64,000 bases of DNA from Phoronis australis. Taxonomy: Eukaryota; Animalia; Phoronida. The notes beneath the pieces are model-generated. The model had not been told where the DNA came from. It searched no databases and saw only the letters and a program-made list of their open reading frames with translations. The translations under genes were made by a program, and so were the position numbers. This document shows, piece after piece, positions 21,030-51,894 of the stretch (the stretch's first letter is position 1; each line of letters begins with the position of its first letter). The stretch is from contig NMRA01000162.1 of assembly GCA_002633005.1 (NCBI GenBank), positions 254,255 to 318,254 of the forward strand, in the 5' to 3' direction.

Positions 21030-21298
21030 TACTCGTGCCAAAAATTTTGCATGCAATTTGTCACGACAGATTATGTTTTTGAGTGATGGATCAAGTGGAA
21101 ATGATGACTTAAAAAGTGCCCACTTGAAAGAATGATGTTTAAGCCAAATGCGGTTACAATTACATGAATAGGCATGTAATCGGGACCAAGAAAGAGCGAC
21201 GACTTTCAGACTGCGAGGTAACTTGTACCAAAAAGTACATTCAGTAATGGGGAGACATTAGGAACAATAAAACAGCAAATTTTCTTTATCAAAAATGT

Positions 21299-21304
21299 TT
21301 TATT
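21299..21304 (-). terminator. Candidate polyadenylation signal (AATAAA) of the U1A/SNF gene
   Basis: TTTATT on +; first minus-strand AATAAA I found after the stop (about 515 nt downstream), about 75 nt after the last AUUGCAC hairpin. Confidence 0.6.
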
Positions 21305-21377
21305 TAGATAAAAAAGTACAATTATTGCAATACTTACAAGACACTGCTTTTGAGAAGGCCACCACGCCTGAAATGTA

Positions 21378-21737
21378 TTGGCTTAGTGCAATGCCAAAAA
21401 TTAAGAAAAAAGATAATTAAACCAACATGGACTGAAAACGAAAAGAAATCCTGCTTGATGTGGAACAGAGGCTGACCCTGAAAAGTTCACAGCTAAAGCA
21501 CTCGACAGGTTACAAATACCAACAACAACCAACCGAGTGCAATGTTGGTCCATTCAACAATGAAATCAAAGTGGATCTGAAACACGATCTCCATCTTTAT
21601 GCAAGACCATTTTAAATTGCTTTCACCTTGCTGATGGTTAAAAAAACCAACCATGTGCAATGTTGGTTCACAGCGTTACAACTTGCAAACAAGATTATCT
21701 TGTGAAGCTCAACTTTGTGCAATGTTGGCTGTTCACA
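21378..21737 (-). promoter_or_regulatory. Array of four U1 stem-loop II-mimic hairpins (U1A/SNF binding sites) in the 3' UTR
   Basis: Minus-strand hairpins at 21701-21737, 21645-21668, 21527-21550 and 21378-21397. Each has a 10-nt loop AUUGCACNNN closed by C-G on a stem of at least 5 bp. Confidence 0.85.
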
Positions 21738-21819
21738 ACGTTTACCATACATGTCCGTCTTGTCCAAAAAGTGGCACAGCGCAAATCCAGACGACGAATG
21801 AGTTTTAAAACAAGCCCGG

Positions 21820-21979
21820 CTATTTCTTTGCATAGGATATCTTCATTGCATTTGACGGCGTAATCTTGAATCCTTGCAATGTTTCTATGGCTTTTCCAGA
21901 CTGCTCCTCTTTTTCAAACTCCACAAAGGCGATGTCGTGACGCCCAGGAACCAACCGAACTTCTTTGAAGCCAGGAAAT
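21820..21979 (-). CDS. snf: U1A/SNF last coding exon (RRM2 C-half)
   Basis: [52 protein letters not shown]. Confidence 0.95.
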
Positions 21980-24900
21980 CTGAAAGTTGAGATTTTCAGT
22001 GAAAGCTAACATTCTTGCGAAAAAGGATGCAAATTCAATCAAGTCAACAGTGTCAAAACGGGAAAGTTCTTGTGGGAGGAACGCATCCTCATAGATAAGC
22101 TGCAACAAAATTACAGATATTATTTATACAACAGACTAAGTGAACGTTTCTGTCAAACTAGAAGCAAGCAATATAACGCGTAGTTTGTACACACTAGTGA
22201 CTGTATGTGAACTGCCCCATAAAATGATCCGAACTTTTGAGGACCAGAAAAATGGTATCAGTCATTAGCACTTTGAACTAAGCCCAACTACACATTAGGT
22301 AAAGTATCATGATAAGTGCTGTGTGGCTCTAATTACTGAGGCAGAGTGACCTCTTAAAACCAGACACATAGACTGTACTGCACTGTGAGACCTCCAGTGC
22401 ACGGTGAACCTCCAGCCATAATATCCACACTCCGGATTCAACTCTTCCTTTTGCAGAGGTAGAAAAACGCATCACTTCACTCGTGCAGTTTAGGCAGGGC
22501 AAACTAAAACACTTCGAAGACGAGTCGGACGTCTGAACGGCAATTTATGGTGGCTCACTCCAGCTTTTCAAAATGTCCGCTTTGCGACCCACTATGCAAC
22601 AGTAATAGTTTATTGGCATCAGAACGATGAATGGCAAACTGCTACTAATCAGGGCTTGGAATGACCAATGACAAAAAACGCGGAAACTTTGAAACTTTTA
22701 CGGCCCAAATCATCGCCCGATAACCAGCCTAGGACTGGACAATGTGAACCTTTCCCCGACAAAAATCGGGACTAAAAAAAAAAAAAAAAAAAAACGTTAC
22801 CACCATCAGTAGCATGCGTCTGCGTCCTTTTAGCTCGCCCGTCTACTCCCAACCCACACATTTTTGGCTGCAGAGCCGTAGTATTTGTCGCCGCGCTTAA
22901 CAACAACACGAGACGCCATTGAAAATCACACCACGCTATCCCAGATGCCTCGGCAATGTTGACAATTTACGTTCCTCCGAACATAAAGAGCAACTTCCGC
23001 TTTTCGAGGTGAACGTCGTCTGCAACGCCGCGGTAAGAAAGGAATTTGCCGCGGATATTTCATATCAAATCCGATTTTTTTACGCGGAAATATTATAAAA
23101 AAAGCGGAAAGCACATTTGAAAAAAGCGGAAATCCGCGTTTCCGCGGAAAATTCCAAGCCCTGACTAATGTGCAGTAGAACAGCAGCTGAGTAGAAATGT
23201 AGGTAAATACCACACAACCAGAGAGAGGGCGCTGCGCTATTCTAGGAAGTAGCCAATTGTGAAAAAAAAAACACTTACTGGTTGAACAACATGGACAACA
23301 TCATTTCGTTGGTTTCTTTTGGCAGGTTGGTTAAGAACAAGATCTGGTTAGGTTCTTGCACGGCTGGAATGACAACAGGCTGAGGGGCCACAGGAACACC
23401 TGGAACAACAGCAGAGAAGTGTTTCATTGTAGACACATCGAGATATTGTCAACAAGACTAACCACAAGACTCCTGAGATTATTCTGACCTAAATCAAGAA
23501 CAGTTTCACGTTACTAAGTTGACTTCACGTGCGAAATTCCTTCGATTCCTCTGCTACTTTGTCCTGTTGACTAAAATTTTAGCACCCACACTCTTAGCAG
23601 AGACTTCCTGCTTTCTAGCCCTAAGATGGCAAATGCCAATTATTGTTTTGATTTAATTTTGAAGCATTGCAAAAATTGAGACATAAAAAAAGGAAATTGA
23701 TATTTCTTAGTTTCAATGGTTACAGTGTCAGTGACGGAAGTACAGCTCACCCATGTGATTTGCAGCCTAATAAACTGTTTTATTTTCATTCATCTCACTA
23801 TGAAGTTGTCCGTTTTTGACTCATTGATGGAGCACTCAATATCAATATCACATGGGACACAAGTAAGTCCTTACCATTTCCTAAGCCCACGTCGTCATGT
23901 TGACTCGTCTCTGTATCATCAGACAATTACAACTAAGTCACCAACCAGCACAAGGACTACTTATTATCTAGCGTGTTGCAAACGCACTGTATTTATCGTA
24001 TGTACTGTTTACATATCAACTGTTTTCCTGATGCTGAATGTTTATCATGTAAAGCTAGCGAATATTTAATAGTCAAAGCTACAAAAGACATTCATGGCAA
24101 AATCTGCATACGAACACAATTAGAAGGCCCCCAAGTTTTATTTACCTTGATCTGGTACAACCTGCTGAACAGCAGGTGGGGCTCCTCCAGCCAGGGCAGC
24201 GGCCTGAAGTCTGTGAAGACACAAGAAACACGATCAGCGGACCGCAGAATAAAGACCGTGACGAGAATGACTTGTAACTTAAAATCTATTCACAAAATAC
24301 ACCTTACAAAACAATCATTACTATTTAAAACTCTATCGAATCATTAACTTGTCGCGGGGCTTTCTAATGCTTAAAGATCCATGCCCACCAAATGATATAA
24401 TGTCGAGACCCAGCTGCCAAACGATTCCCAGCATGAATAACAACATTATGCAAGACAACAACCAAAGTGTTCAATAGCCATACTCTCAATTATTGACATA
24501 TGACAGCGGTGAAAAGAAAACTATTGTAAGTTACAAAAAACACATTAGCTTAGAATACTTTTTCTGTTTCTTCGACTTCTTGGTTGGAACCTCCTCTTCC
24601 TCTTTCTTTTTCTTTGGCCTCTCTACAAACGTTCCCTTCTGTTTGGCTACCACATCAGAGTCCTTCTTGCAGTATGCTATCCTCTGCAAGTAAACATTGC
24701 TGACAGCACTGAGTCGCATATTACACAACAGGGACATGCATAAAGAAGCACCGCGAATGTGATGTGTACTATTGACACCACACTATGCTAATTGGAAATA
24801 AATGAATTTGCGATTTCAGATTATCAAACTTACACGCACTACCCTTACACCAGTGACCAAGAAAACTGACTCAGCCAGACAAAACTTTTTAAATCAATTT

Positions 24901-27382
24901 TCAGGTAAAACACAAGTCGATCTAAAGTCCGTTCAGCGAAAGTGACCATAGGTTTGACTACATTTTTTTACTTAAGTTTTGTCTTAAGTTTGATGTAACT
25001 CAACGGATGTGGGAGTTTCAAAGTTTGGAGGTTGAAACAAACCTTGGCTTTAATAAGTAAAAATGAACTTAAAGTTAGTTTCTTGAAACCGGCCCAATGA
25101 CTACAAAACTTTACTCAAGTCTTGACTTGCCTCGACAAATTAACCAATTGCCGGGTACAATTCCTGTAAACGTTCAATTTCGGTGATGCGACTGTTCAAT
25201 TGACTAATCAAGTTTCGAGTAAGGTTGTTAGTCACGGGACAGGTGTAGTGTAATACAGTTGCATAAGGTCAATAAAACTGAGCCACGAAAAGCCAAAACA
25301 AAAGGTTGACACCAGTATCCAGCGTGCCAACTTCTGCAAACACACAAAATGTGAAATTTTGTTAAAATCACGACTCTCGTTTCTTACCAACGAACGACAG
25401 TTAAGATACATAGCATAGAACTGTGGTTAGAACTAATTTGAAATTGAATGAGTGTGAATTAACTTTACGACCATGTTTGGGTGAATGCCTTTTTAAAATT
25501 TTCAAATCCAAAATGCACGTTGAATTACACAACAAACCCCAAATGTTTTCACCAAAGACTTCAGCTACGTCTTAGTGAAAACACCTTGTGCAAGCCAAAT
25601 TTCAGATTCACCACATTACACCCAATGAACAGAACACAGAACCAGGATTTAAACTACCATCAAATTAGTTGTGCCTTTACTTATGAGTACTAAAAGGAGT
25701 CCATGTTTTTGTTTCCATGGCGATAAGCACGCCAGCCTTTAAGGCTCTCTAAAAGTTTTACCATGGGCTTGTCATAGAATGGGAAGCCCTGCATGGAACG
25801 CAGTGCATTGGTCGAACTGTTGATGTCTTTGAAGATAACAAATGCTTGGCCACGCATCTTGAGTGTCTTAGATGCGACTATGTCGTAGATTGGACCAAAC
25901 TGTGAGAAGATGGCGTACAATGACTTCTTCAATTCTGAAAACAAACATAATTAGGTTTCAATGTAATTATAGACACGCACCATCTTTCTGCATCATATTT
26001 CCACTCATGAAACAAGTGTGTCATTGCTAAGCAACAAGAAGGTCAACAGCACTTGTGATGACTTGGAACATCTACTCTTAAGTTGACTTGGGGCAGTCCA
26101 TCAACTTAAGTATTTTCGCCCCAACAAGTGCCCTTCAAGTGTGCTGAGTTCTATGATCACACGGTAGTCACAGACAGCAATATTGTCCATCAAAGGTCCT
26201 GTATGCGACTGCACACAGAAGAGCATTTTCCCTCATGGAGACATGAAAATCAAAAACGGGACAAAACTGAGCAAATACGATAGATTTGCAAAATGTCATT
26301 GATATGCACTATGGGAATCCATAAACACACTAGTTTGAAGCCCCTTTGAAATAAAGCAGCAGTAGCGTACAGGTAATTTCTTTATCCCCACGATAATCAA
26401 GAACGAGCCAAACTTATGGAAAATAGAGTCAAATCACAAACACCGACGACTTATGACTTTTCGTAGGCAGAGGAAGATTATTTTATAAAAACGAGCATTT
26501 CCATAATATGTGAAAATCAAGAATGGGCTAAAATTCTGGAATATATGGACAAATCGCAAATTGCTGATAATATGCATTACGGCACTTTGTAAGCGTACTT
26601 GCTTGAAAGCTTGGTAAAAATCTCCTGAGAAATGTATCATATATTTTAGGCGAAATTTGTAATGAAATGTCACTGCCTCACTCTTCCCAAGTATCCGAAA
26701 GCAGTTGGTGCGGCGGGTTACTTACTTAAGGGACCAACTAAGGGACCATTTTTTTTTCAATTATTCAGTTCCAAGAACTAGGGAATTGCAACTTCAACAG
26801 AAACACTGGTGTGAGCAACAACTTTCTATGATTTTTTCTACTACAGCAGGAAAAAAACTTGATTTTCAAACGAGACTCAAAGCTTTAAATCCTAAGCTGC
26901 TTAAGATTTCCAAATATGGCTCAGAACTACTCAGCATGGAGCAGCACCCTGCCTCCATGGATACACGTAGGATAGCAATAATAAACCAGTGTTCTCCACT
27001 ACCTATTTTGAATCATTACTGCATCGAGTTTAAATTTTGCCGTGACGAGTTTGGCTCACTTGCCTAGAGTTTAAAAACCTGTACGAGTTTGAAACATAGG
27101 GAGTTTAGTCATTGCCTAAGCAAATTAGGACAAGTGGGCTTTTAGTACCACTTCAGTGCATTTATTTCGAACTCCCAATAATATACGCATTGATTTTGAA
27201 TACATGTACATGAATTTCGATATTTTGGTCGAGTTTGCATTTTCTTTTGTGCAGAACACTGAACCATGAAACCATTAATGCACAAAACACTTTTCACCTC
27301 GCTGTAAGGAATGCTTACCTTCTTTTTTGACTTTCTCATTGAGGTTGTTGATGTAAATTGTTTGGTTGGGTGGATTCTGCAT
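21820..27382 (-). CDS. snf: U1A/U2B''/SNF (URB) family spliceosomal two-RRM protein; coding exons 27382-27319, 25934-25762, 24683-24559, 24210-24146, (cassette 23910-23875), 23399-23279, 21979-21820; 235 aa, 247 aa with cassette
   Basis: RRM1 [30 protein letters not shown]...[10 protein letters not shown]; RRM2 [46 protein letters not shown]...MKISYAKK*. All GT-AG introns in phase. Homolog of SNRPA/SNRPB2. Confidence 0.95.
22650..23163. mobile_element. hAT-like MITE (514 bp) with 6-bp TSD
   Basis: TIRs CAGGGCTTGGAAT / ATTCCAAGCCCTG; ACTAAT on both flanks; subterminal GCGGAAA repeats. Confidence 0.8.
23279..23399 (-). CDS. snf: U1A/SNF exon (linker and RRM2 N-half)
   Basis: [40 protein letters not shown]; GTAAGT donor. 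Confidence 0.95.
23875..23910 (-). CDS. snf: Candidate 36-nt in-frame cassette exon in the inter-RRM linker
   Basis: GATACAG|AGACG...GAAATG|GTAAGG; phase 1-1, open frame [12 protein letters not shown]; weak polypyrimidine tract. Confidence 0.5.
24146..24210 (-). CDS. snf: U1A/SNF linker exon
   Basis: [21 protein letters not shown]; TCTTCACAG acceptor, GTAAAT donor; phases 2/1 bridge the neighbouring exons. Confidence 0.85.
24559..24683 (-). CDS. snf: U1A/SNF exon (end of RRM1, helix C, basic region)
   Basis: [41 protein letters not shown]. Confidence 0.9.
25762..25934 (-). CDS. snf: U1A/SNF exon (RRM1 core)
   Basis: [58 protein letters not shown]. Confidence 0.97.
27319..27382 (-). CDS. 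snf: U1A/SNF first coding exon (exon starts at 27391 after an acceptor, so the 5' UTR is spliced)
   Basis: [21 protein letters not shown]; GTAAGC donor; TTGTTTCAG acceptor 9 nt before the ATG. Confidence 0.93.
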
Positions 27383-27486
27383 CTTGATGTTCTGAAACAA
27401 CATTTCATTGGTTAAGAATCACTCACTACAGTTGGTTGGGTGGATTCTGCATCTTAATGTCCTAAAAAAACATTTCATTGGTTAAG
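27362..27486. repeat. Tandem duplication (70-nt offset) of the SNF acceptor and start codon
   Basis: TTGGTTGGGTGGATTCTGCATCTT(G/A)ATGT...CATTTCATTGGTTAAG at 27362-27416 and 27432-27486. Confidence 0.9.
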
Positions 27487-28927
27487 TCACCCATTACATT
27501 TCACTGATGGCACTGATCTTGGGCCACAAAACAGACATACTAGGTTTTGAATAAACACCATGTCTGCAGAATACACAATCATTCACTGCAGTGAAACATT
27601 ACCTCAAACATTACCAGCAATCTAATCACAGCCCAACCAGCTTTGGTTGCAAAATCAGCAATTTTAAAGATGGCTGTGTTATGAAAATCTATACAAAATA
27701 AGCAATTTAATATAAATAAGGCCAAAATTACTAATTTCACGACTAGACCACCATCACTCAATCATGCAAGAATAACACTTAAACTCCAAAATAATTTAAT
27801 CGATTTATTTTGGTGGAACATAGAATCCTGTTTATGTTTTTAACTCAAAAAGAAAAAAAGAAACTAACTATTAAATTGCAAGACTGTCCTAACTCAGGAG
27901 CTCAAATCCAGGCTGTATTTGAATAAAATTGTGGTTAAGAATTTGACACTAAATATTTACAATGAGGATTTAGTGCACGTTGATTTTAAAATGGCTTCAT
28001 TATTAAGTAATGGAACATGTTGTAGCTACTGCTGGGGTTGTCATACCAACCAATTTATGGCAAATTATTGCAATATATATCTTGGAAACGATGTGGATTA
28101 GAAACTGTGGATTAATCAACCTGACCCAAAATTTTTGTAATTAAAAATTGCACTTCCTTTGTTTAACTGAATTAGTTACACAACTACTAGTACCCATGCT
28201 ACAATATTGCCATTCTATCGTTATTCTGTTGTTGAATTTGTGGAGCGATACTATGTTGGCTTTGAGCACCATGGAAAAGAGCGCAAAATATTTTGCCAAA
28301 TTGCTTTTTTCAACAATTCTCCAATCAAATGTTCTTCTTTCTCAATTTTAGGTTGCGTACACTTCACAACAACTTACTTAGTTTTTAGTACTTTATTACC
28401 AGAAAACCAAATTTCTGAGCAAATTTGGTTCGGCAAACTTGCCATCATTTCTTGGACGATACTGCAAAAATTTAGTAAATGGCATGTGGGTGAGGCATGA
28501 ACAGCTTTCAAGCTTAAATTCAATGGAATTTTGTTATTTTAGATGTTTTAGGCTAACCAGGTAGTCCTAGCAAAGCCTTAGTAAAACAAGAAAACGTGAG
28601 GTCAATCACGCAAATGTAAGCCAGTCACCAAGAGATCCCAGCACAAACAACAAAAGGTCGGTGTATTAAATAGGGGTCTGAATAGAACACCATTGTGTAC
28701 GGGTGTTATTCGCAGCGGTTTTAAATAAAAGGTGATTCTCACGGTGACGAAATCAAAAGCAACAGTTCCTTACATTAGGCAATTTATGGCAGTAGTAATC
28801 TCAGAGCAATGCTCCTAACATACTGTATCAACCAAATTTACACGTGTTACCATACAAGATAGGCTTTGAAGTTGAGGATAGAGCTTTCTATAAAAGCTGG
28901 AGAATGATACAAGAAAATGACATTTAA

Positions 28928-29808
28928 AGGGGAAGGCAACCCTTTTTCATGTCATTCTTAGCAAAAATAAGATTCATTGATTATCCCAGACATATTTTTC
29001 ACTTAATTACAGCTTTTCGCAATTTAATTAATAATTCCTCCTCTACTCCGGAAGTGACGTTTTGGGAGGCAAACATTTTGTGCCAATTTCTTTTTATATA
29101 GTCTGACTGTGAGAGCTGTCGAGTCGGTCATTGTTCTACCTCGGTTGTGATAAGTTCGGTCGTCATTTGCTTTTGCTTAAGAGTCAGTCAACATGCCACA
29201 CTGTTGCTGCTTACCGGGATGTACTCCTTATTTCCCAGAGCCTGTAAACATCCCTGCTGCGATGTTGAGTAGTGGGAGTGAATAGAGACCCAGTTAGACA
29301 CCGAGTGAAGAGGACAGCTCGTCGTCCAATGGTGAGCCAAACATTGATAAGTTAATTGTGGACTTGTACAAAGTATTGGAGCGATTTTGAAGCTGCCAGG
29401 TGTGTGGCGAGGGAGTCACACGGCGGGATGTAAGCAATTTGTGTGTTCAGGTAACCATCCAGCGGGAGCGTGTCGCAGGACACTCGGGCAAGTGGGAAGT
29501 TGTTCCTATGTCCGTGAGAAGATAATGAGTACATCCCGGCACGCAGCAACTGTGCGGCATGTTCACTGACTCGTAAACAAAAGCAAACGACGACCGAACT
29601 TATCACAACCGAGGCAGCTCTCACAGTCGGTCTATAAGTCTGAAGAGAAACTGGCCCAAAATTCTTGTCTCCCAAAACGTCACTTTCGGAGTAGCAGACA
29701 AGTAATAGTTTAAATTATAAAAAGCTGTAATTTACTGAAAAATATGTCTGGGATAATTAACGAACCTTATTTTTGCTAAAAATGAGATGAAAAAAGTTGC
29801 CTTCACCT
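28928..29808. mobile_element. Kolobok-type non-autonomous DNA transposon
   Basis: TTAA|AGGGGAAGGCAAC ... GTTGCCTTCACCT|TTAA (TTAA TSD, AGG termini), long imperfect TIRs, internal THAP-like start MPHCCCLPGCT near 29193. Confidence 0.8.
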
Positions 29809-32742
29809 TTAATACATTGCTTTTCACTTAATTGCTGCAATGGGCAACGTCAACGTCCGTTGACTCCAAGATTTTGCAAAAACCCCTGCCTTGCGCTCTA
29901 TATTTTGATAAATGTTTCATGACAACGTAATGATCTGGAACCCATAGAATTACAGGCATCGATTCTTAGCTGTATTTTGGTATGTGTTAATCACAACACG
30001 GTGCATACCTATGCATGCTTCATTTGACATTATTCGCTGTTTGAAATAAATAACTTTTTATGGGGTTATGCCATCACCTGTGGATGCCACAAGCCTCCAC
30101 AGGGAATGTAATTACCTGGTAGTTGTCACAGCATGCAAGACACCCCTAATTTTAGTACAAGCAAAAAAAGCCGTCCAGGCAAATTCGTTTGCCGAGTTCA
30201 CCAGCTTTTCTCTTTGGGTATCATTTACATTATTTTCGCCTCTTAAAATGTGGTTCGCTGACCTCAGTTCCCAGTTCCCGACCTGCAAATTTTGGCAGAT
30301 CACGTGCAGCAAGATGCTGTTCTGCTAAGGGTCAAGCCCTGAGTGATTATTTTATAATTCTGGTAAATTTCCTAACAGCTGTGAAGGTAGCGTATTCCAA
30401 ATTTGGTAATTGTTTACAATATGAGGATATTGACCTACACACGATTTTGGTATCGCCAGATTCCTCGCATTGCTATCATTTCAAAAACCAACAAAAATGT
30501 CTCCTGCCCCAGTTCCTGGTACTGATACCACCATGTTGCATGGAAGTAGTTATCTGGCGGCCAAAAACTGAAATTATCTATCCTCACCCATATTCTGCAG
30601 AATGTCACTCTTTATTAGTTCAAACTGAGCGATACCTGTCGACTCCAGCCCCGAACTACATTCCCAAATGTTCAAATTCCTATGGTGACCCTAATATGTA
30701 TCTGCTTACAAGAATCTGTGAAAAAAGGTTGTTTTCGAGGTCCAAATTTGAGGAATGGGTCAAATGATCACAGTTCTAAAAATTTATGAATAAGGGTGAA
30801 TTGCTGCCCTTGTTGCTCCATGTTATATCAGGAAAATGTTCGGCGGAACCTCACGGGCAAACACCATTCAGAATCCATGATGCTGTCTTGACGGAACATG
30901 GCAGTGTCAACCAGGAAAAATTGTGAACGGAATGATAGGCAGTGTTCTCCACTACCAATTCCAAACTCGACGCAAATTTCTAGAGTTCAATATCAGTAGT
31001 CAACACTGTCTTTTCTCTAGTCTAAAGCCTTAAGATCTCCACTGTATATTGAACTGGCCAGGTGTGACCTATTTTTTAACACTTTGTAGGGCCTTCACGT
31101 GAAAACCGCGAATCGTGCTCGAAGTGCCCATTAAACTGACGACTGTCTCACGAATAAAAAATTTGTTGTTAAAAGCACTTGGCCAGGAAGCACGCGCTAC
31201 ATACCTGTCACATTGCAGACATTAGTCTTCGGGAACTATCCATGAATCTACGCCAGGTAGCATATCGGCAAGAAATAAATATCGGGCAATAATTTCAGAA
31301 AGTTTCTAATGCCGTAAAAACTGATGTGCTATTTTTAAGGGGGTTTGCTTTGATAATCACTTTTTCAATGTATTCATAATTGGTGTTTTTACGATAAATA
31401 TCTAATAAAATGCCCCACTGATAGTGGACACCTCCACCCCTGAATCTCCCGGAAAATAACTCAGACTGTCACACATTTAGTCACCGGCAACTCAATGACA
31501 TTCGGCCTTAGGCCCTAAAGAGACAATTCTCGCACGTAGTAGATGTGATCAGCAAGTGCTAATCAAAACGTGTTCTCGTGGTACTGCTTGTGTTATTTCT
31601 TTAGTTACAATGCACACCTCTGGCAAATGAACACTGAAGACACACACATGCTCGCTCACTCACACACACAGACGATCTTCAAAACAAAGGTCACGTGACT
31701 ACGACGTGTGTTCGTCCAGAGATTTTTCTCATGTTGCTGGGTACGATCTTGTGCAGGTTTGAACTTATCTTGTTCATAATACCGATCTCCACAGGAACTT
31801 ATAAGCTTAGGAACGCTATTTGGAAAAACTTAAGTGAGGATTTCAGGTAATTTGTCGAAAACTTGAAACTATAACTTTATTCAAGCTGCCCTGTTGATGA
31901 TTGCGAGGCAGCGGCGCATCGGCGAGTTTTCGCCCCGGGATTTCAGCGTGATTTTCTATAGAATGACCGTAACTTAACAACGCAGTTTGATAGCAATGCA
32001 GTGTTTCCTCTGGGTTTTGAAAGGAGCGTGGTGGTGAATGGCCAAAACGGAGTGCAAAGCCCATTGCCGCACACGAATATGAGAAGTGGGATCCCCGCAT
32101 TGCCTAGGTTTTGAAACGAGCATGGTGGTGAATGCTCGACGCGGATGTGGAACCTGGTGCCACATGCAAGTATGGGGGAAGAGAGATCCTCCCATGGGGG
32201 GGTTGTCGCTTAAAGTTACGATGTCGATAACGCCGTCCATCCGGAATTCATCGGCAATTTCTGTGCCGTCCTTGACCTGCGAAGTGTGTTTGGGCTTTTT
32301 GGGAACATTTTTGTGCTTTGACTGCAAATTTCTTGCAAACGCGCTGGAGCAGGACACTGTTAATGGTATAACTAAGAAAGAACAATTTCTCATGGTTTGT
32401 TGAACCCGTTTTGTGTAAATCTGTTGAGTTATTTGTTTAATATGGACGGCTGAATCGAAGCAACCGTGGAATTACTAGCCCCGAGTTTCAAACCTAGTAG
32501 TATTATATGTACCTTGTATTGGGGACGATCAGAAGCTGAGTCGAGGACGCCTGTGCCCACAAGTTCCGGGCCGGGAGAATTTGCAGGACACTGAAAAACA
32601 GTCAGTGCGTGTTTGCTGAAGTCCAAGTTCCAAAAAAGGAAAATAGACAATCCATGTGCCTTTTAAATCCAAAAGATTGAAATGTGTATATTCCGCGCGT
32701 TCGATGACCAAAACACAACAACAAGAAATTTGATTTTTTTAC

Positions 32743-33042
32743 CTGTCGTTCGCTGCCTCTGACTCTTCAATGACGTCTGCCTTAAATCTCGCTTATAGGC
32801 GAGATTGTGACTTACAAGGAACTTATTGTAGAATTATTAGTTTTCAACGTGAGCTTAACACAATTCACGTATACGAAAGCGACAAATGTGGCCACACAAG
32901 GACATGAAAGATAGGTTTTCTTTTTCATAAACTGAACCAACTACAATTTTATGAGTAGATGCTGAACGAGATTTCAAAGGTCATGCGCACTCCGGAAAGT
33001 CGCCATATTGGCTGCTGACAGTGGGAGGAAAACACAAAAATG
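32743..33042. promoter_or_regulatory. Probable bidirectional promoter shared by U1A/SNF (-) and VPS26 (+)
   Basis: Minus-strand donor CAG|GTAAAA (exon end 32743) and plus-strand ATG|GTAAAG (33040-33042) are 300 nt apart. Between them: TGACGT (32771), palindrome AATCTCGC..GCGAGATT, ACTACAA (32940), TGCGCA (32984) and YY1-like CGCCATATT (33001). Confidence 0.55.
33040..33042 (+). CDS. VPS26: VPS26 exon 1 (ATG only)
   Basis: CAAAAATG|GTAAAG; exon 2 begins at phase 0 with SFLGFG and lacks a Met. An ATG-only first coding exon is what I recall for vertebrate VPS26A. Confidence 0.7.
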
Positions 33043-48000: not shown

Positions 48001-51000
48001 CATTTGAGGGACGTCATAGTGGGCAAGATCTACTTCCTGCTAGTGAGAATCAAGATCAAACACATGGAGGTGCAGATCATAAAAAGGGAAAGCACAGGCT
48101 CAGGTAGTTGTCGCCTCACTCACCGCTCTGTACTTTTGCTCTTTACAACCAGGGCACTTGATCACCTGAGGGGAAGGATGTCTGTGTCTTCTTGAAGGGA
48201 TTTTTTTGATCGAACGGAAATTTCTCATCTCATGCCTACGAGCGTATTAGAAAACCTAAAAAGCATATTGATGTTATCCAAATAGATGTCCTGAGGTATT
48301 CTTCCACAAATGTTCAGTGCTCTACTGTGAAACGTCTGCTGGTTTTGGTGGTTAGCGCTGCCTGAAATCCGATTCCTAGCATATGTTACCTTATGGAATG
48401 TAGTAATTATTATAACCTCAGTTGAAATTTGCTTATGTCTCATTAACCAACTTCTTTAGTTCTCAGATTTATTTGAATGTTTTTCCTTTCTGAAATAGCA
48501 CAGGTCGGTGATACTTTCACAGTGTTCAAGAAGATTCCTTTTAATTAGCTCTGTCTCTATGTAGATGAATACTCCTTGCTGTGGTCTGTAAAACCGGGGG
48601 TGGGATGGTATAAATTTTTAGGAATTCTATTTGATTCTCAATAGGAGGTATTTGATTATTTTCAATAATTATTTATTCTGACTCATTTGTCAAATTAATT
48701 CATTTCTTTCAAATGCAAGTAGTTAACTTACCATTAGCGCCAATTTTAGCAACAAATTTGTTAAATATGATAAAATGTCCTCTAATGGAGCTGTTTGCTT
48801 GTTTAGTATCTCAATAATGCTCTTCAAAAGATACAAAAATGCCGCACCCAACAGCGAAAATTAGAATTGAATCGAAACAGGCCTTGGCATATTAATATCG
48901 AAATCAGTTGCTCCGGCCACATTTCGATTAGATTGCAATTTGATTATTATAATGTTCTCACCCTTATGTAATACCTGAACTAATGTTAAATGAAATGAAA
49001 CCAAATTTCCGGGAATTCACATAATGTAGGTGAACATAATGGGAAGCTACCTTGGAGAATGGATCAGCTCAAAACTTGTAAACGCCCATAGTATTGCCCA
49101 CCCCTACTTCACACTTGAAATGCCCAAACTACAAATTGGTGCTTTAGTTTGTCTTTAATAACCTTTCCTTTAGCTCTTGATTTCAAGCTTGCTCGTACAG
49201 TGTCTGTTCTTAAAATACTTCTCACTGCTATCTGGCTTCTTCACAAAGTCGTCATCTGTTACTGGTTACCATCTTCGGTCAAAAAACTAACTTTGTTTAG
49301 ACTACTGGTCTCGGCTTGTTATTTCGAAGGGATTTTGAGCTTGCTTGGGACTGGTGGATCATTACTACTTAAGACCAGGCTCAGTCTGTTGGCTTGATTC
49401 AGACACCAGATGGAGTACTCATTGGTTTGTTGCACAAAACCTTGAGATGGGACCAGCTATCTTGATCGAGTCTGTTCTCTAGCAATGTGTATCAAAACTA
49501 CCAGTTCGTCCTATGCGTAGAAATCCATTCTAAAATACAGAACAAGTTGAGGCCGATTTTCAACCGTTAATTTTTTAATAGTTTTTTTAAAATTTACTTA
49601 AAAGATTCATTCAAACAAAGATGTGATGCTAAAGCACGCGTTTACCTTGTTCTACTGGAATTGCTAAAGTAGATTGTGACTCATATGTTTCGCATGATAA
49701 CGGGGTGTGCATTGTTGTTATATTTCAGGGCCGAATACCTTCAATGAAAATGAAACGATTGCAAAATATGAAATCATGGACGGTGCCCCAGTCAGAGGTG
49801 AGTATTTCTTTTTACAAAGTGTTTGTATTGCATTTTTAATTTTAAATTAATGTAAGGTTGCCATAATTAATGTGATATTAAGATTGACCTGATTGGAACT
49901 CTTAGTCAACTCTTAGTCAGGCAGATGATGACTGCTCGACTTGTTGCATAGTTGTGTGCTGGATTTCATCGGTGATGTCACGTAACCACACATCGTATTG
50001 CCGACAGAGTTGTGCAATTCGTGCTGTTCAGCCTCGGTGTTTTTTTGTACGAATGTTCGTTAAGTACCATTTCCCTGGACTGTTGAAACCAAGAAATTTC
50101 CGACATCACGATCTGATCTAGTATCATAATGCTGTGGTAGTAAGCGGGTCAGAGCTTACAGTCACACAAAGGAATCAGCTGGTGAATGAAAGTCAACTGT
50201 TTTCCCTGTCCTAAGTTTTTCTGGTAATTATTGTATTTCATACAAAACACATTCTTCTTTTCGACATTAGTTGAGCATCATTTGAGATAGTATTTTTAAA
50301 TATCATTTAGTGTCAGGCGCTCTGTTCACAACAATAATTGCTGGATTACGTGACCTTATCAGATGAACGTAGACAATGAGAGAGCTGGAGTATATAAACA
50401 TTGGTTTGCTAACTTTCTTCCTTTGCCTCGCTGTCAAAACTGATATAATGACATGGCTGTATCCCGACTAGCAAGTCGGTGAAATCAGTGTAGTCGTCCC
50501 ACAGCGTATGTACGTAAAGTTGTTTAATAGTGCTATACTTGCGAATAAAACCTAGCAAACAACAGGGCTTCGAAAGAATTGACGGTCTTTATAAATTGAC
50601 TTGCCGTGAGTATAGTCTCAAGGCACAACCGACTGCCACTTCCTGCTAACCTAGAAATCACTTGAGACCACGTTTTTAGTGAGAAGTAGTCTAAATCAAG
50701 AGTTCACTTCTTGCATGGAACACCGGTTTATAACACCTTTGTCAATATGGGTCTTTTTGTTTGGAGGTCTACAGCTCTGTTCTTGGAAATGTTTTTTATG
50801 CGTGCGTCTGATGTTTTTTTACTTTGATATAGGCGAGTCGATACCGATACGGTTGTTCCTGAGTGGATACGAGTTGACACCGACAATGCGAGACATCAAC
50901 AAGAAATTCTCAGTACGGTACTACCTAAACCTTGTTCTAGTGGATGAAGAAGAGCGGAGATACTTCAAGCAGCAGGTGAGTGTCTCTGGAGGTGTTTCTA

Positions 51001-51894
51001 GTGGGCTGATGAAAACGACGCGACTTAAGATATGCTTCTTGAGCTGTATTGAAAATTTTTTTGTTTGAACATTGTCCTTTTAGTAGACCAGTGAAAATGC
51101 ATTGGTGGAGATGTGTTTCTTGTGCTCTGTTGAGAATGTTTTGTGAGAGTGTGATTGTGCTTCTAGTGTTCTGGTTAGAATGCCTTGTGTGAACGTGGTG
51201 CTTCTGCTGCTCTGGTCATAGTGCCTCGTGTGAACATGGTGCTTCTGGTGCTGTGGTGGAAGTGCCTTAAACTTCACAAAGAGAGTCAGACTGTATAAAG
51301 TGGCACAGTACATGCTATTCAACTTACGATTAGTTGAAATCAAAACCAAATCTGGACGCGACGCTTAGCATAACACCAAATGAAACCTGGAAATTTCCCA
51401 GGTTGCCAAATAGGAAGGGAGATCTCCAACGTCCTTAGCAACAACCTTAAATGAAATAAAAGATACGTGGAGCAAAAAAACGGTGAACTCTGCAAATGTG
51501 TGTCGGTGCATCCTAAATCAGGGTGATCTGCACATCTTTCCTCTACCTGTCTCATACATGGGCATTCCGATACTTGCTAAACGATTCCGACTTGGTTAGT
51601 TTTCTTCCCGCAGTATTTTGAGTGCATGCTCGGATGTGTGAATAGCGACTTCCTGGCGACCTGGAATTTTTCCTACGTCGCCCAACAATGTGATGCCGAC
51701 AAATCGAGCCCTGCAACTACAGTACCCAGTCATATTAATCTCTGTTGTAGGAGATCACAGTATTTCGCAAGGCGGACAAAGCACGGCGGACACAAGGAGG
51801 TGGCAGAAAAATGGAGGAGCAGGAGGCAATGAAACGACACGAGCCGGACTTACTAGCAGGAAGTCAACAGGCTGATGGCAATGAGGAACAGTGA
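33040..51894 (+). CDS. VPS26: Retromer subunit VPS26; coding exons 33040-33042, 37090-37233, 43870-43945, 45764-45920, 46674-46838, [47312-47418 OR 47997-48103], 49729-49797, 50833-50975, 51751-51894; 335 aa
   Basis: MSFLGFGQSAEID...YYDGETVSGKV...LEHQGIKIEFVGQIELYYDRGNHHEF...[27 protein letters not shown]...YEIMDGAPVRGESIPIRLFL...RRYFKQQEI. GT-AG introns, in phase when one of the two 107-nt exons is used. Confidence 0.95.
33747..34285. mobile_element. Second copy of foldback/MITE family A
   Basis: TAGACAGTGACCACC...GCGCATAGAGGGTCACC... and inverted GGTGACCCTCTATGCGC...GGTGGTCACTGTCTA; homologous to 3810-4435. Confidence 0.7.
35953..36105 (+). mobile_element. Minimal HINE/DINE-1-like (Helentron-associated) element
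   Basis: 5' T tract, subterminal IR ATGCGCCCAC (35958) / GTGGGCGCAT (36072), 5' palindrome CCACATATTTATATGTGG, (CCGT)n microsatellite, 3' hairpin CAACGC-TCT-GCGTTG. Confidence 0.7.
37090..37233 (+). CDS. VPS26: VPS26 exon 2
   Basis: SFLGFGQSAEIDVVLDGQDQRKVTEVRTEDGKKEKLFLYYDGETVSGK. Confidence 0.95.
37592..39220 (+). mobile_element. Kolobok-like transposon derivative carrying a THAP-domain ORF fragment (37749-38069)
   Basis: TIRs AGGAGAATGCCACCC / GGGTGGTATTTTCCT flanked by CTAA / TTAA. ORF CMVPAC...SFFRLP...RKW...RVCGWHF fits the C2CH THAP zinc finger. Internal tandem duplication at about 38645-38760. Confidence 0.75.
41235..41553. repeat. Minisatellite, 28-31-bp unit, about 10 copies
   Basis: GTCATC(T/C)GGTGTGTATCTC(CTC)TGAGGT(G/A)TA repeated. 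Confidence 0.9.
43870..43945 (+). CDS. VPS26: VPS26 exon 3
   Basis: VNVTLKKQGSKLEHQGIKIEFVGQI; GTAAGT donor. Confidence 0.95.
45764..45920 (+). CDS. VPS26: VPS26 exon 4
   Basis: ELYYDRGNHHEFTSLVKELERPGILTQNKTYKFEFVQVEKPYESYTGANVRLR. Confidence 0.95.
46324..46520. repeat. Minisatellite, 45-bp unit, about 4.4 copies
   Basis: GC(A/G)TGTGCCTTATTTCAGGTATTAGGGGCAGCTTCACATATAGTC repeated. Confidence 0.95.
46674..46838 (+). CDS. VPS26: VPS26 exon 5
   Basis: [55 protein letters not shown]. Confidence 0.95.
47312..47418 (+). CDS. VPS26: VPS26 mutually exclusive exon 6a
   Basis: 107 nt, YHLTDVIVGKIYFLLVRIKVQFMELAIVKREITGS; AG/GT intact. Confidence 0.85.
47997..48103 (+). CDS. VPS26: VPS26 mutually exclusive exon 6b
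   Basis: 107 nt, YHLRDVIVGKIYFLLVRIKIKHMEVQIIKRESTGS; AG/GT intact. Confidence 0.9.
49729..49797 (+). CDS. VPS26: VPS26 exon 7
   Basis: GPNTFNENETIAKYEIMDGAPVR. Confidence 0.95.
50833..50975 (+). CDS. VPS26: VPS26 exon 8
   Basis: GESIPIRLFLSGYELTPTMRDINKKFSVRYYLNLVLVDEEERRYFKQQ. Confidence 0.95.
51751..51894 (+). CDS. VPS26: VPS26 last coding exon
   Basis: EITVFRKADKARRTQGGGRKMEEQEAMKRHEPDLLAGSQQADGNEEQ*; TCTGTTGTAG acceptor. Confidence 0.9.
   Translation, partial: EITVFRKADKARRTQGGGRKMEEQEAMKRHEPDLLAGSQQADGNEEQ

Follow-up and report, generated by a model that had tools for sequence, protein, structure and literature searches.

Autoregulation of U1A is a textbook feedback loop, found described for vertebrates only and needing there a poly(A) polymerase (PAP) tail of the vertebrate type. 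Two U1A molecules on the vertebrate PIE inhibit PAP through residues 103-119 (PMC5071671, PMC6884704, PMC9977717); the PAP tail needed for this inhibition is conserved in vertebrates and not in flies, and inhibition through a U1 site works in fly cells (PMC9136276). Proteins of the same family bind stem-loop II (SLII) of U1 snRNA, where binding is set by the C-G closing pair, loop C7, the 10-nt loop and free 3' loop bases (PMC4114683, PMC5992148), the fly SLII loop being AUUGCACCUC (PMC5992148). No description of SLII-type sites in invertebrate SNF UTRs was found in the full-text literature, outside which most of the primary U1A papers lie, and a paper on the evolution of the family (PMC4114683) makes no mention of UTRs, polyadenylation or autoregulation.

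The window analyzed here is a 64,000-nt stretch of Phoronis australis DNA whose minus strand carries a gene of this family, with four SLII-like hairpins in its 3' UTR that had been noticed in a sequence-only reading. The sites resemble SLII in having the form C-AUUGCACNNN-G with a 10-nt loop, and differ from it in lying in an mRNA, in four copies, on stems unrelated to U1; no match to U1 snRNA was found in the window. As in the vertebrate PIE (Rfam RF00460), several C-G-closed AUUGYAC sites precede a poly(A) signal in the 3' UTR of the very mRNA that encodes the U1A/SNF protein (PMC5071671).

The gene and its protein

The gene is a member of the U1A/U2B''/SNF family with two RRMs, the first of which is close to those of U1A, SNF and U2B'', and it is of the unduplicated SNF type. 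Pfam RRM_1 was matched at both ends of the gene (exon 3, E 4e-10; last exon, E 3.7e-7), and the best PDB matches of the RRM1 exon were structures of U1A, SNF and U2B'' (E 4e-28 to 3e-25). Transcript evidence came from three raw-read runs of one study (X2-X4) and from a contig of a second study (X1), which was taken for RNA by guess. The RNA-seq data gave six GT-AG joints and a non-coding first exon, with the gene structure as follows (all on the minus strand).

32743..32768: exon 1, non-coding, 5' end approximate (joint 27391/32743 supported by 19, 24 and 12 reads in X2-X4; 32768 is the end point of 7 molecules in X3)
27319..27391: exon 2, start codon at 27382, RRM1 begins (read joints; open 235-aa frame)
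25762..25934: exon 3, RRM1 core, VASKT (Pfam RRM_1; structure matches; read joints)
24559..24683: exon 4, RRM1 end and basic linker (read joints; alignment to human U1A 83-119)
24146..24210: exon 5, linker (read joints)
23279..23399: exon 6, RRM2 begins (read joints)
21820..21979: last exon up to the stop codon at 21822-21820, RRM2 (Pfam RRM_1; joint 21979/23279 in 72, 50 and 28 reads)

Compared with 30 named proteins, the 235-aa frame shows 72-76% identity to Lingula and bivalve orthologues; a quick protein tree placed the window's SNF protein in no well-supported group. Beta2/loop 3 of RRM1 reads VASKT, intermediate between the ancestral VALKT and the LVSRS of U1A, and the change from L to S in this segment reportedly gives higher SLII affinity (PMC4114683).

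Three other features were observed in the window. A partial duplicate of the exon 2 acceptor and first codons lies at 27460-27430 on the minus strand, about 70 nt upstream of the real one, and no read joint to this duplicate was listed. Within the first intron, 28200-29800 and 30400-32600 hold multi-copy sequence, additional to that of the last intron described below, with reads on both strands. An exon of a Vps26 (retromer) gene is located on the plus strand at 50655-51065 (Pfam E 1.9e-17).

Four hairpins in the 3' UTR

All four hairpins of the sequence-only reading were recovered at the coordinates it had given, on the minus strand and 3' of the U1A/U2B''/SNF stop codon; each was identified by pattern search and by folding it alone.

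21700..21738, minus strand: hairpin 1, loop 21723-21714, 4 bp with a bulge and an extension
21644..21669, minus strand: hairpin 2, loop 21661-21652, 8 bp
21527..21550, minus strand: hairpin 3, loop 21543-21534, 7 bp, loop positions 9 and 10 polymorphic in reads
21378..21397, minus strand: hairpin 4, loop 21392-21383, 5 bp, stem unrelated to hairpins 1-3

The details of the earlier description also held. A 10-nt loop starting with AUUGCAC and a C-G closing pair are present in 4/4 hairpins, the last three loop bases vary (AAA, AUG, UCG and UAA in hairpins 1-4), and the fourth stem has its own sequence while keeping its pairing over 5 bp. Every rule of the U1 SLII type (AUUGCAC on the 5' side of a loop of at least 10 nt, C-G closing, stem) is followed at 4/4 sites, and the U2 SLIV form (U-G or U-U closing, 11 nt) is unused at these sites. 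The sites are 62-151 nt apart and spread over 350 nt. The AUUGCAC heptamer as such is not enriched in the window (11 found vs 13.6 expected), and the C-G closing pair is absent from the other seven copies. Among 20,000 dinucleotide shuffles of the 530-nt region, one such hairpin arose in 16 and two or more in none, a null that overstates the case because hairpins 1-3 share arms (CCAAC...GUUG) and, with the separate stem of hairpin 4, therefore represent about two independent designs rather than four. From their common arms, hairpins 1-3 are probably local duplicates.

The folding check that had been proposed succeeded only in part: each site folded alone gives the described hairpin, but hairpins 2 and 3 are minor in the whole UTR. 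Relative to shuffles, the isolated hairpins 1-4 have z-scores of -1.8, -0.8, -0.4 and -0.7, none being more stable, and the z-score of the region is 0.2. In the predicted ensemble of the whole naked UTR, the closing pair of the hairpin's own fold has probabilities of 0.49, 0.014, 0.004 and 0.23 for hairpins 1-4, 6.3 kcal/mol is needed to keep the four loops open together, and the heptamers are locally no more accessible than the UTR on average. Modeled folding energy gives the hairpins no support; the human element is likewise mispredicted relative to its known fold (PMC5499560).

Expression, polymorphism and the 3' end

The hairpins are contained in spliced mRNA, all four being covered by 306, 222 and 101 reads of X2-X4 that map to a single strand and are joined to exon 6. 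The first mate is on the plus strand in all X2-X4 reads, as expected for a stranded library of minus-strand RNA, and the X1 contig, which is spliced, spans 21346-21979. Cleavage of the mRNA upstream of the hairpins, which had been raised as an objection, was not borne out, reads crossing all four. Read depth at 21360-21393 is 27, 14 and 5 in X2-X4 and zero by 21292-21325; poly(A) loose ends were absent from the two read alignments. The features of the 3' end are the following.

21344..21819, minus strand: 3' UTR, well covered part (reads; thin cover continues into 21325-21292 in X2)
21374..21379, minus strand: AAUACA, shares bases with the 3' arm of hairpin 4 and may be a variant poly(A) signal (X2 has 5 molecules starting at 21344, and the X1 contig stops at 21346)
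21330..21337, minus strand: GUAAGUAU, 8-nt match to the 5' splice-site consensus, possible U1 snRNP site between hairpin 4 and AAUAAA
21299..21304, minus strand: AAUAAA, probably the poly(A) signal (read coverage runs out around it)

The AAUAAA is where the sequence-only reading had put it, at 21304-21299. The AAUACA at 21374-21379 is one that we take to count among the variant poly(A) signals, and either it or the AAUAAA may serve as the poly(A) signal. No splicing from GUAAGUAU was seen in the reads. Runs resembling a U1 site with at least seven matches occur in 6/21 site-bearing regions (the window included, some regions being related), compared with 3 antisense and 0/13 site-less regions, which is not significant.

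The covered UTR contains 14 substitutions, three of which fall at free loop positions 9-10. The 36 bases of the heptamers and closing pairs contain none, with about one expected, so that the difference is not significant; a substitution in X1 at 21646 breaks the sixth pair of hairpin 2.

That the region might be a dispersed repeat, likewise raised as an objection, found no support: the cluster is the only one in the 64 kb, and its reads (X1-X4) look single-copy, coming from one strand, each matching a single place and leaving no loose ends within the UTR. A MITE-like element with 17-nt terminal inverted repeats occupies 22646-23167 in the last intron, about 1 kb away, and has deep, divergent reads on both strands with varied flanks, unlike the UTR.

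Sites in orthologous 3' UTRs

Orthologues were collected by last-exon alignment, and the best 80 of 291 confirmed loci were assigned to 30 lineage groups by UTR similarity and by hand from peptides, each group being represented by the member with the longest 3' flank. Taxon labels given to loci (coral-like and so on) are hints from the nearest named protein. None of the orthologous UTRs aligns with that of the window. The proposed search for similar sites was productive: two or more C-AUUGYAC sites follow the stop codon in 15/30 groups (best 80 of 291 loci), compared with 0/30 on the antisense strand. One or more sites are present in 16/30 groups and none in 14/30; of the 18 groups with at least 500 nt of 3' flank, 12 contain at least two. 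In up to 1.6 kb of sequence following the stop codon, the 30 groups hold 52 C-AUUGYAC sites in 24.7 kb, vs 2 antisense and 2 in 29.3 kb upstream, counts that overstate independence since sites within a lineage are duplicates and the lineages are related. In the same groups, C precedes AUUGCAC in 49 of 50 instances, and CAUUGCAC ranks first of 1,680 letter permutations (49 vs a mean of 0.27).

Of the 14 site-less groups, eight have less than 400 nt of flank and six at least 500 nt. Arrays with one mismatch were sought in 22 site-less loci and none was found, one isolated 6-bp case apart. The six groups with at least 500 nt that lack both sites and a near-match array suggest that the system is dispensable or has been replaced in some animals. 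The two largest site-less groups (26 and 11 loci; the L001-L027 group and the L031/L051/L062/L064 group) have contig-name prefixes in common in seven pairs, which suggests that these two SNF types are paralogues from a lineage-specific duplication in one lineage.

Stem pairing was analyzed at the 31 of 49 sites that are followed by a G at a distance of ten bases, a choice that ignores all other stem positions. Pairs 2-6 form in 29, 28, 24, 26 and 23 of the 31 sites, and this total pairing was reached by 0/20,000 permutations. With one site per lineage (12), 49/72 cells pair vs 35.4, and 2/20,000 permutations were as high. The expected covariation appeared when the window's four hairpins were added: over the 35 hairpins, 5/6 pairs change on both sides, copies being included and phylogeny uncorrected, and 86.7% of cells pair vs 64.7% after shuffling.

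The architecture had been presented as one without a known description, and for invertebrates none was found in the full-text literature searched; it is, however, not special to this gene copy, as two or more exact 10-nt hairpins occur in 6/30 other groups (the coral-like L029 group and L080, and L034, L035, L046 and L066), with lineage-specific stems. In the L029 group and L080 the last exon is 98-100% identical to named corals, and the nearest named proteins of the other four are annelid or brachiopod. Different arrangements are found elsewhere. The arthropod-like L028 and L061 and the bivalve-like L006 have two sites 24-27 nt apart that fold into nested stems when the loops are held open, at the positions given here.

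L006, 3899-3961: nested two-site element
L028, 2176-2228: nested two-site element
L061, 844-901: nested two-site element

L028 additionally has a 5-bp central helix, which gives it the PIE topology. The L006 pair consists of one AUUGCAC and one AUUGUAC, and a PIE central helix can be drawn there by eye and was not predicted; in L073 the nested form is not the fold with both loops open. Single sites, mostly in internal loops, are present in the copepod-like L060, L067 and L077 and the bivalve-like L023, and L030, L032 and L038 have loops of 11-13 nt. Rfam PIE searches of 11 orthologous loci gave no match up to E 5. In the nine groups with a downstream hexamer, this hexamer lies 72-132 nt from the last site of the cluster in six (88 nt in the window) and 297-428 nt from the cluster in three.

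Some further observations were made in these flanks. Directly after the second site, L060, L067 and L077 (740-1140) share a conserved AU-rich hairpin, AAUUAUAGUAC...UACUGUAAU. A tRNA-like match (37.4 bits) lies downstream of the coral-like SNF gene of L029, at 1663-1735. L030 and L032 both carry an antisense C-AUUGCAC in the same place, some 80 nt before the first of their sense sites; this copy may pair with a sense site.

A candidate feedback switch and its alternatives

The four hairpins are read here, with a probability of about 0.75, as a docking-site array for the gene's own protein that would exert negative feedback on its output. The sites sit in the one mRNA whose product reads SLII-type sites, and the negative sign is proposed by analogy, because vertebrate U1A works in this way. 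SNF left over once U1 and U2 snRNA are occupied would attach to its own mRNA; RRM1 would bind each site, and binding, judging from the biochemistry of the family, would pull the RNA into the hairpin fold. Less mature mRNA would then be made, the most probable cause being impaired 3'-end processing at the poly(A) site that follows closely. As a share of the whole, regulation at this 3'-end step is put at a little under an even chance. The spacing between cluster and hexamer in 6/9 groups would favor it, as would GUAAGUAU before AAUAAA, which recalls the U1 site near the PIE; against it stand the poorly kept linker, a spacing wider than that of the PIE and the lack of PAP tail conservation in flies. 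Such a U1 site reportedly synergizes with the PIE, a result ascribed to Guan in 2007.

The main rival keeps the same sites and the same negative sign, and forms the second branch within the probability given above: feedback would be cytoplasmic, on translation or decay of the mature mRNA, which we hold to be on balance unlikely. Sites scattered over 350 nt, and far from the hexamer in 3/9 groups (297-428 nt), would suit such a mode, as would the poor retention of the PAP-inhibiting linker and the shuttling of U1A that is free of U1 (PMC5071671), but the only worked-out case in the family acts on polyadenylation (PMC5071671), sister lineages have PIE-like nested forms, and a U1-site-like octamer stands before AAUAAA. 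A reversal of sign, with bound SNF stabilizing the mRNA, promoting 3'-end formation or being chaperoned as new RRM1 is caught, seems improbable. Positive feedback on a stoichiometric snRNP subunit would be expected to be unstable, and self-binding by such proteins is usually negative (PMC6884704 for U1A, and general knowledge), even though expression can rise when human U1A is brought directly to transcripts (PMC9136276) and U1A can stimulate polyadenylation via upstream elements (PMC5071671).

Explanations in which the SNF link is incidental fare worse. Another protein with a UGCAC or GCAC preference, or microRNA sites, would leave unexplained the C-G closing pair with its constant spacing of ten bases, the paired and covarying stems and the recurrence in the same gene across phyla; GCAC motifs are read by other RRM families (PMC5311487), and no exposure of the heptamers is predicted for naked RNA, but this reading is regarded as quite improbable. 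Least credible of all is a neutral origin, in which a U1-derived or chance hairpin was copied locally, or a small repeat inserted, without function. That hairpins 1-3 are near copies and that none is unusually stable would agree with it, whereas the differing stem of hairpin 4, the non-aligning orthologous UTRs with arrays and stems of their own, and UTR reads without the multi-copy behavior of the intron repeat 1 kb away argue against it; the orthologue site counts (15/30 groups, best 80 of 291 loci) make it unlikely. Overall, a docking-site array for SNF on its own mRNA with negative feedback is the preferred reading.

Should it hold, sites in the single ancestral SNF gene of coral-, mollusc-, annelid- and arthropod-like lineages would push the origin of the loop back by several hundred million years. 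It also raises the question of how a protein common to the U1 and U2 snRNPs is titrated, and allows a test of whether the known PAP contact is dispensable for repression; the site-less lineages provide natural controls.

Comparison with the vertebrate element

In the vertebrate PIE, a 4-bp helix connects two asymmetric internal loops, each with one site, whereas the window has four separate 10-nt hairpin loops. In the PIE consensus, the adjacent sites are 19 nt from the hexamer, compared with 81 nt from the last heptamer to AAUAAA in the window, where a short, PIE-like distance would be found only if the AAUACA at 21379 is the signal. Rfam gave no match in the window at gathering cut-offs. The PIE model scores 17.2 bits there (E 2; cut-off 50) in an alignment that lacks the central helix and has an insertion of 46 nt, and membership of the window's element in the Rfam PIE family was rejected on this score.

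The proteins differ as well. To the vertebrate PAP-inhibiting stretch ERDRKREKRKPKSQETP there corresponds in the window's protein a 13-residue run that is closer to SNF and U2B''; in the alignment with U1A 103-119 a basic and acidic run is present, of which only ER, K, K, E and P are kept.

The sub-threshold PIE match is obtained by pairing hairpin 1 (5' arm) with hairpin 2 (3' arm), and this modeled arm swap may link the hairpin and PIE designs. Hairpins 1 and 2 are able to pair in this way, and L028, L061 and L006 resemble the nested form. An arm swap between two tandem hairpin copies would keep both C-G closing pairs and produce the PIE topology. Self-regulation of U1A/SNF through SLII mimics in the 3' UTR may already have existed in the last ancestor shared by corals and bilaterians, well before vertebrate U1A and U2B'' split, and the PIE may be one member of a set of folds alternating between hairpin arrays and nested two-site loops; we hold this tentatively, at slightly less than even odds. 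Combined, these comparisons describe an element that is real, expressed and conserved in kind, for which a PIE-like action is inferred, and which by structure is not a PIE.
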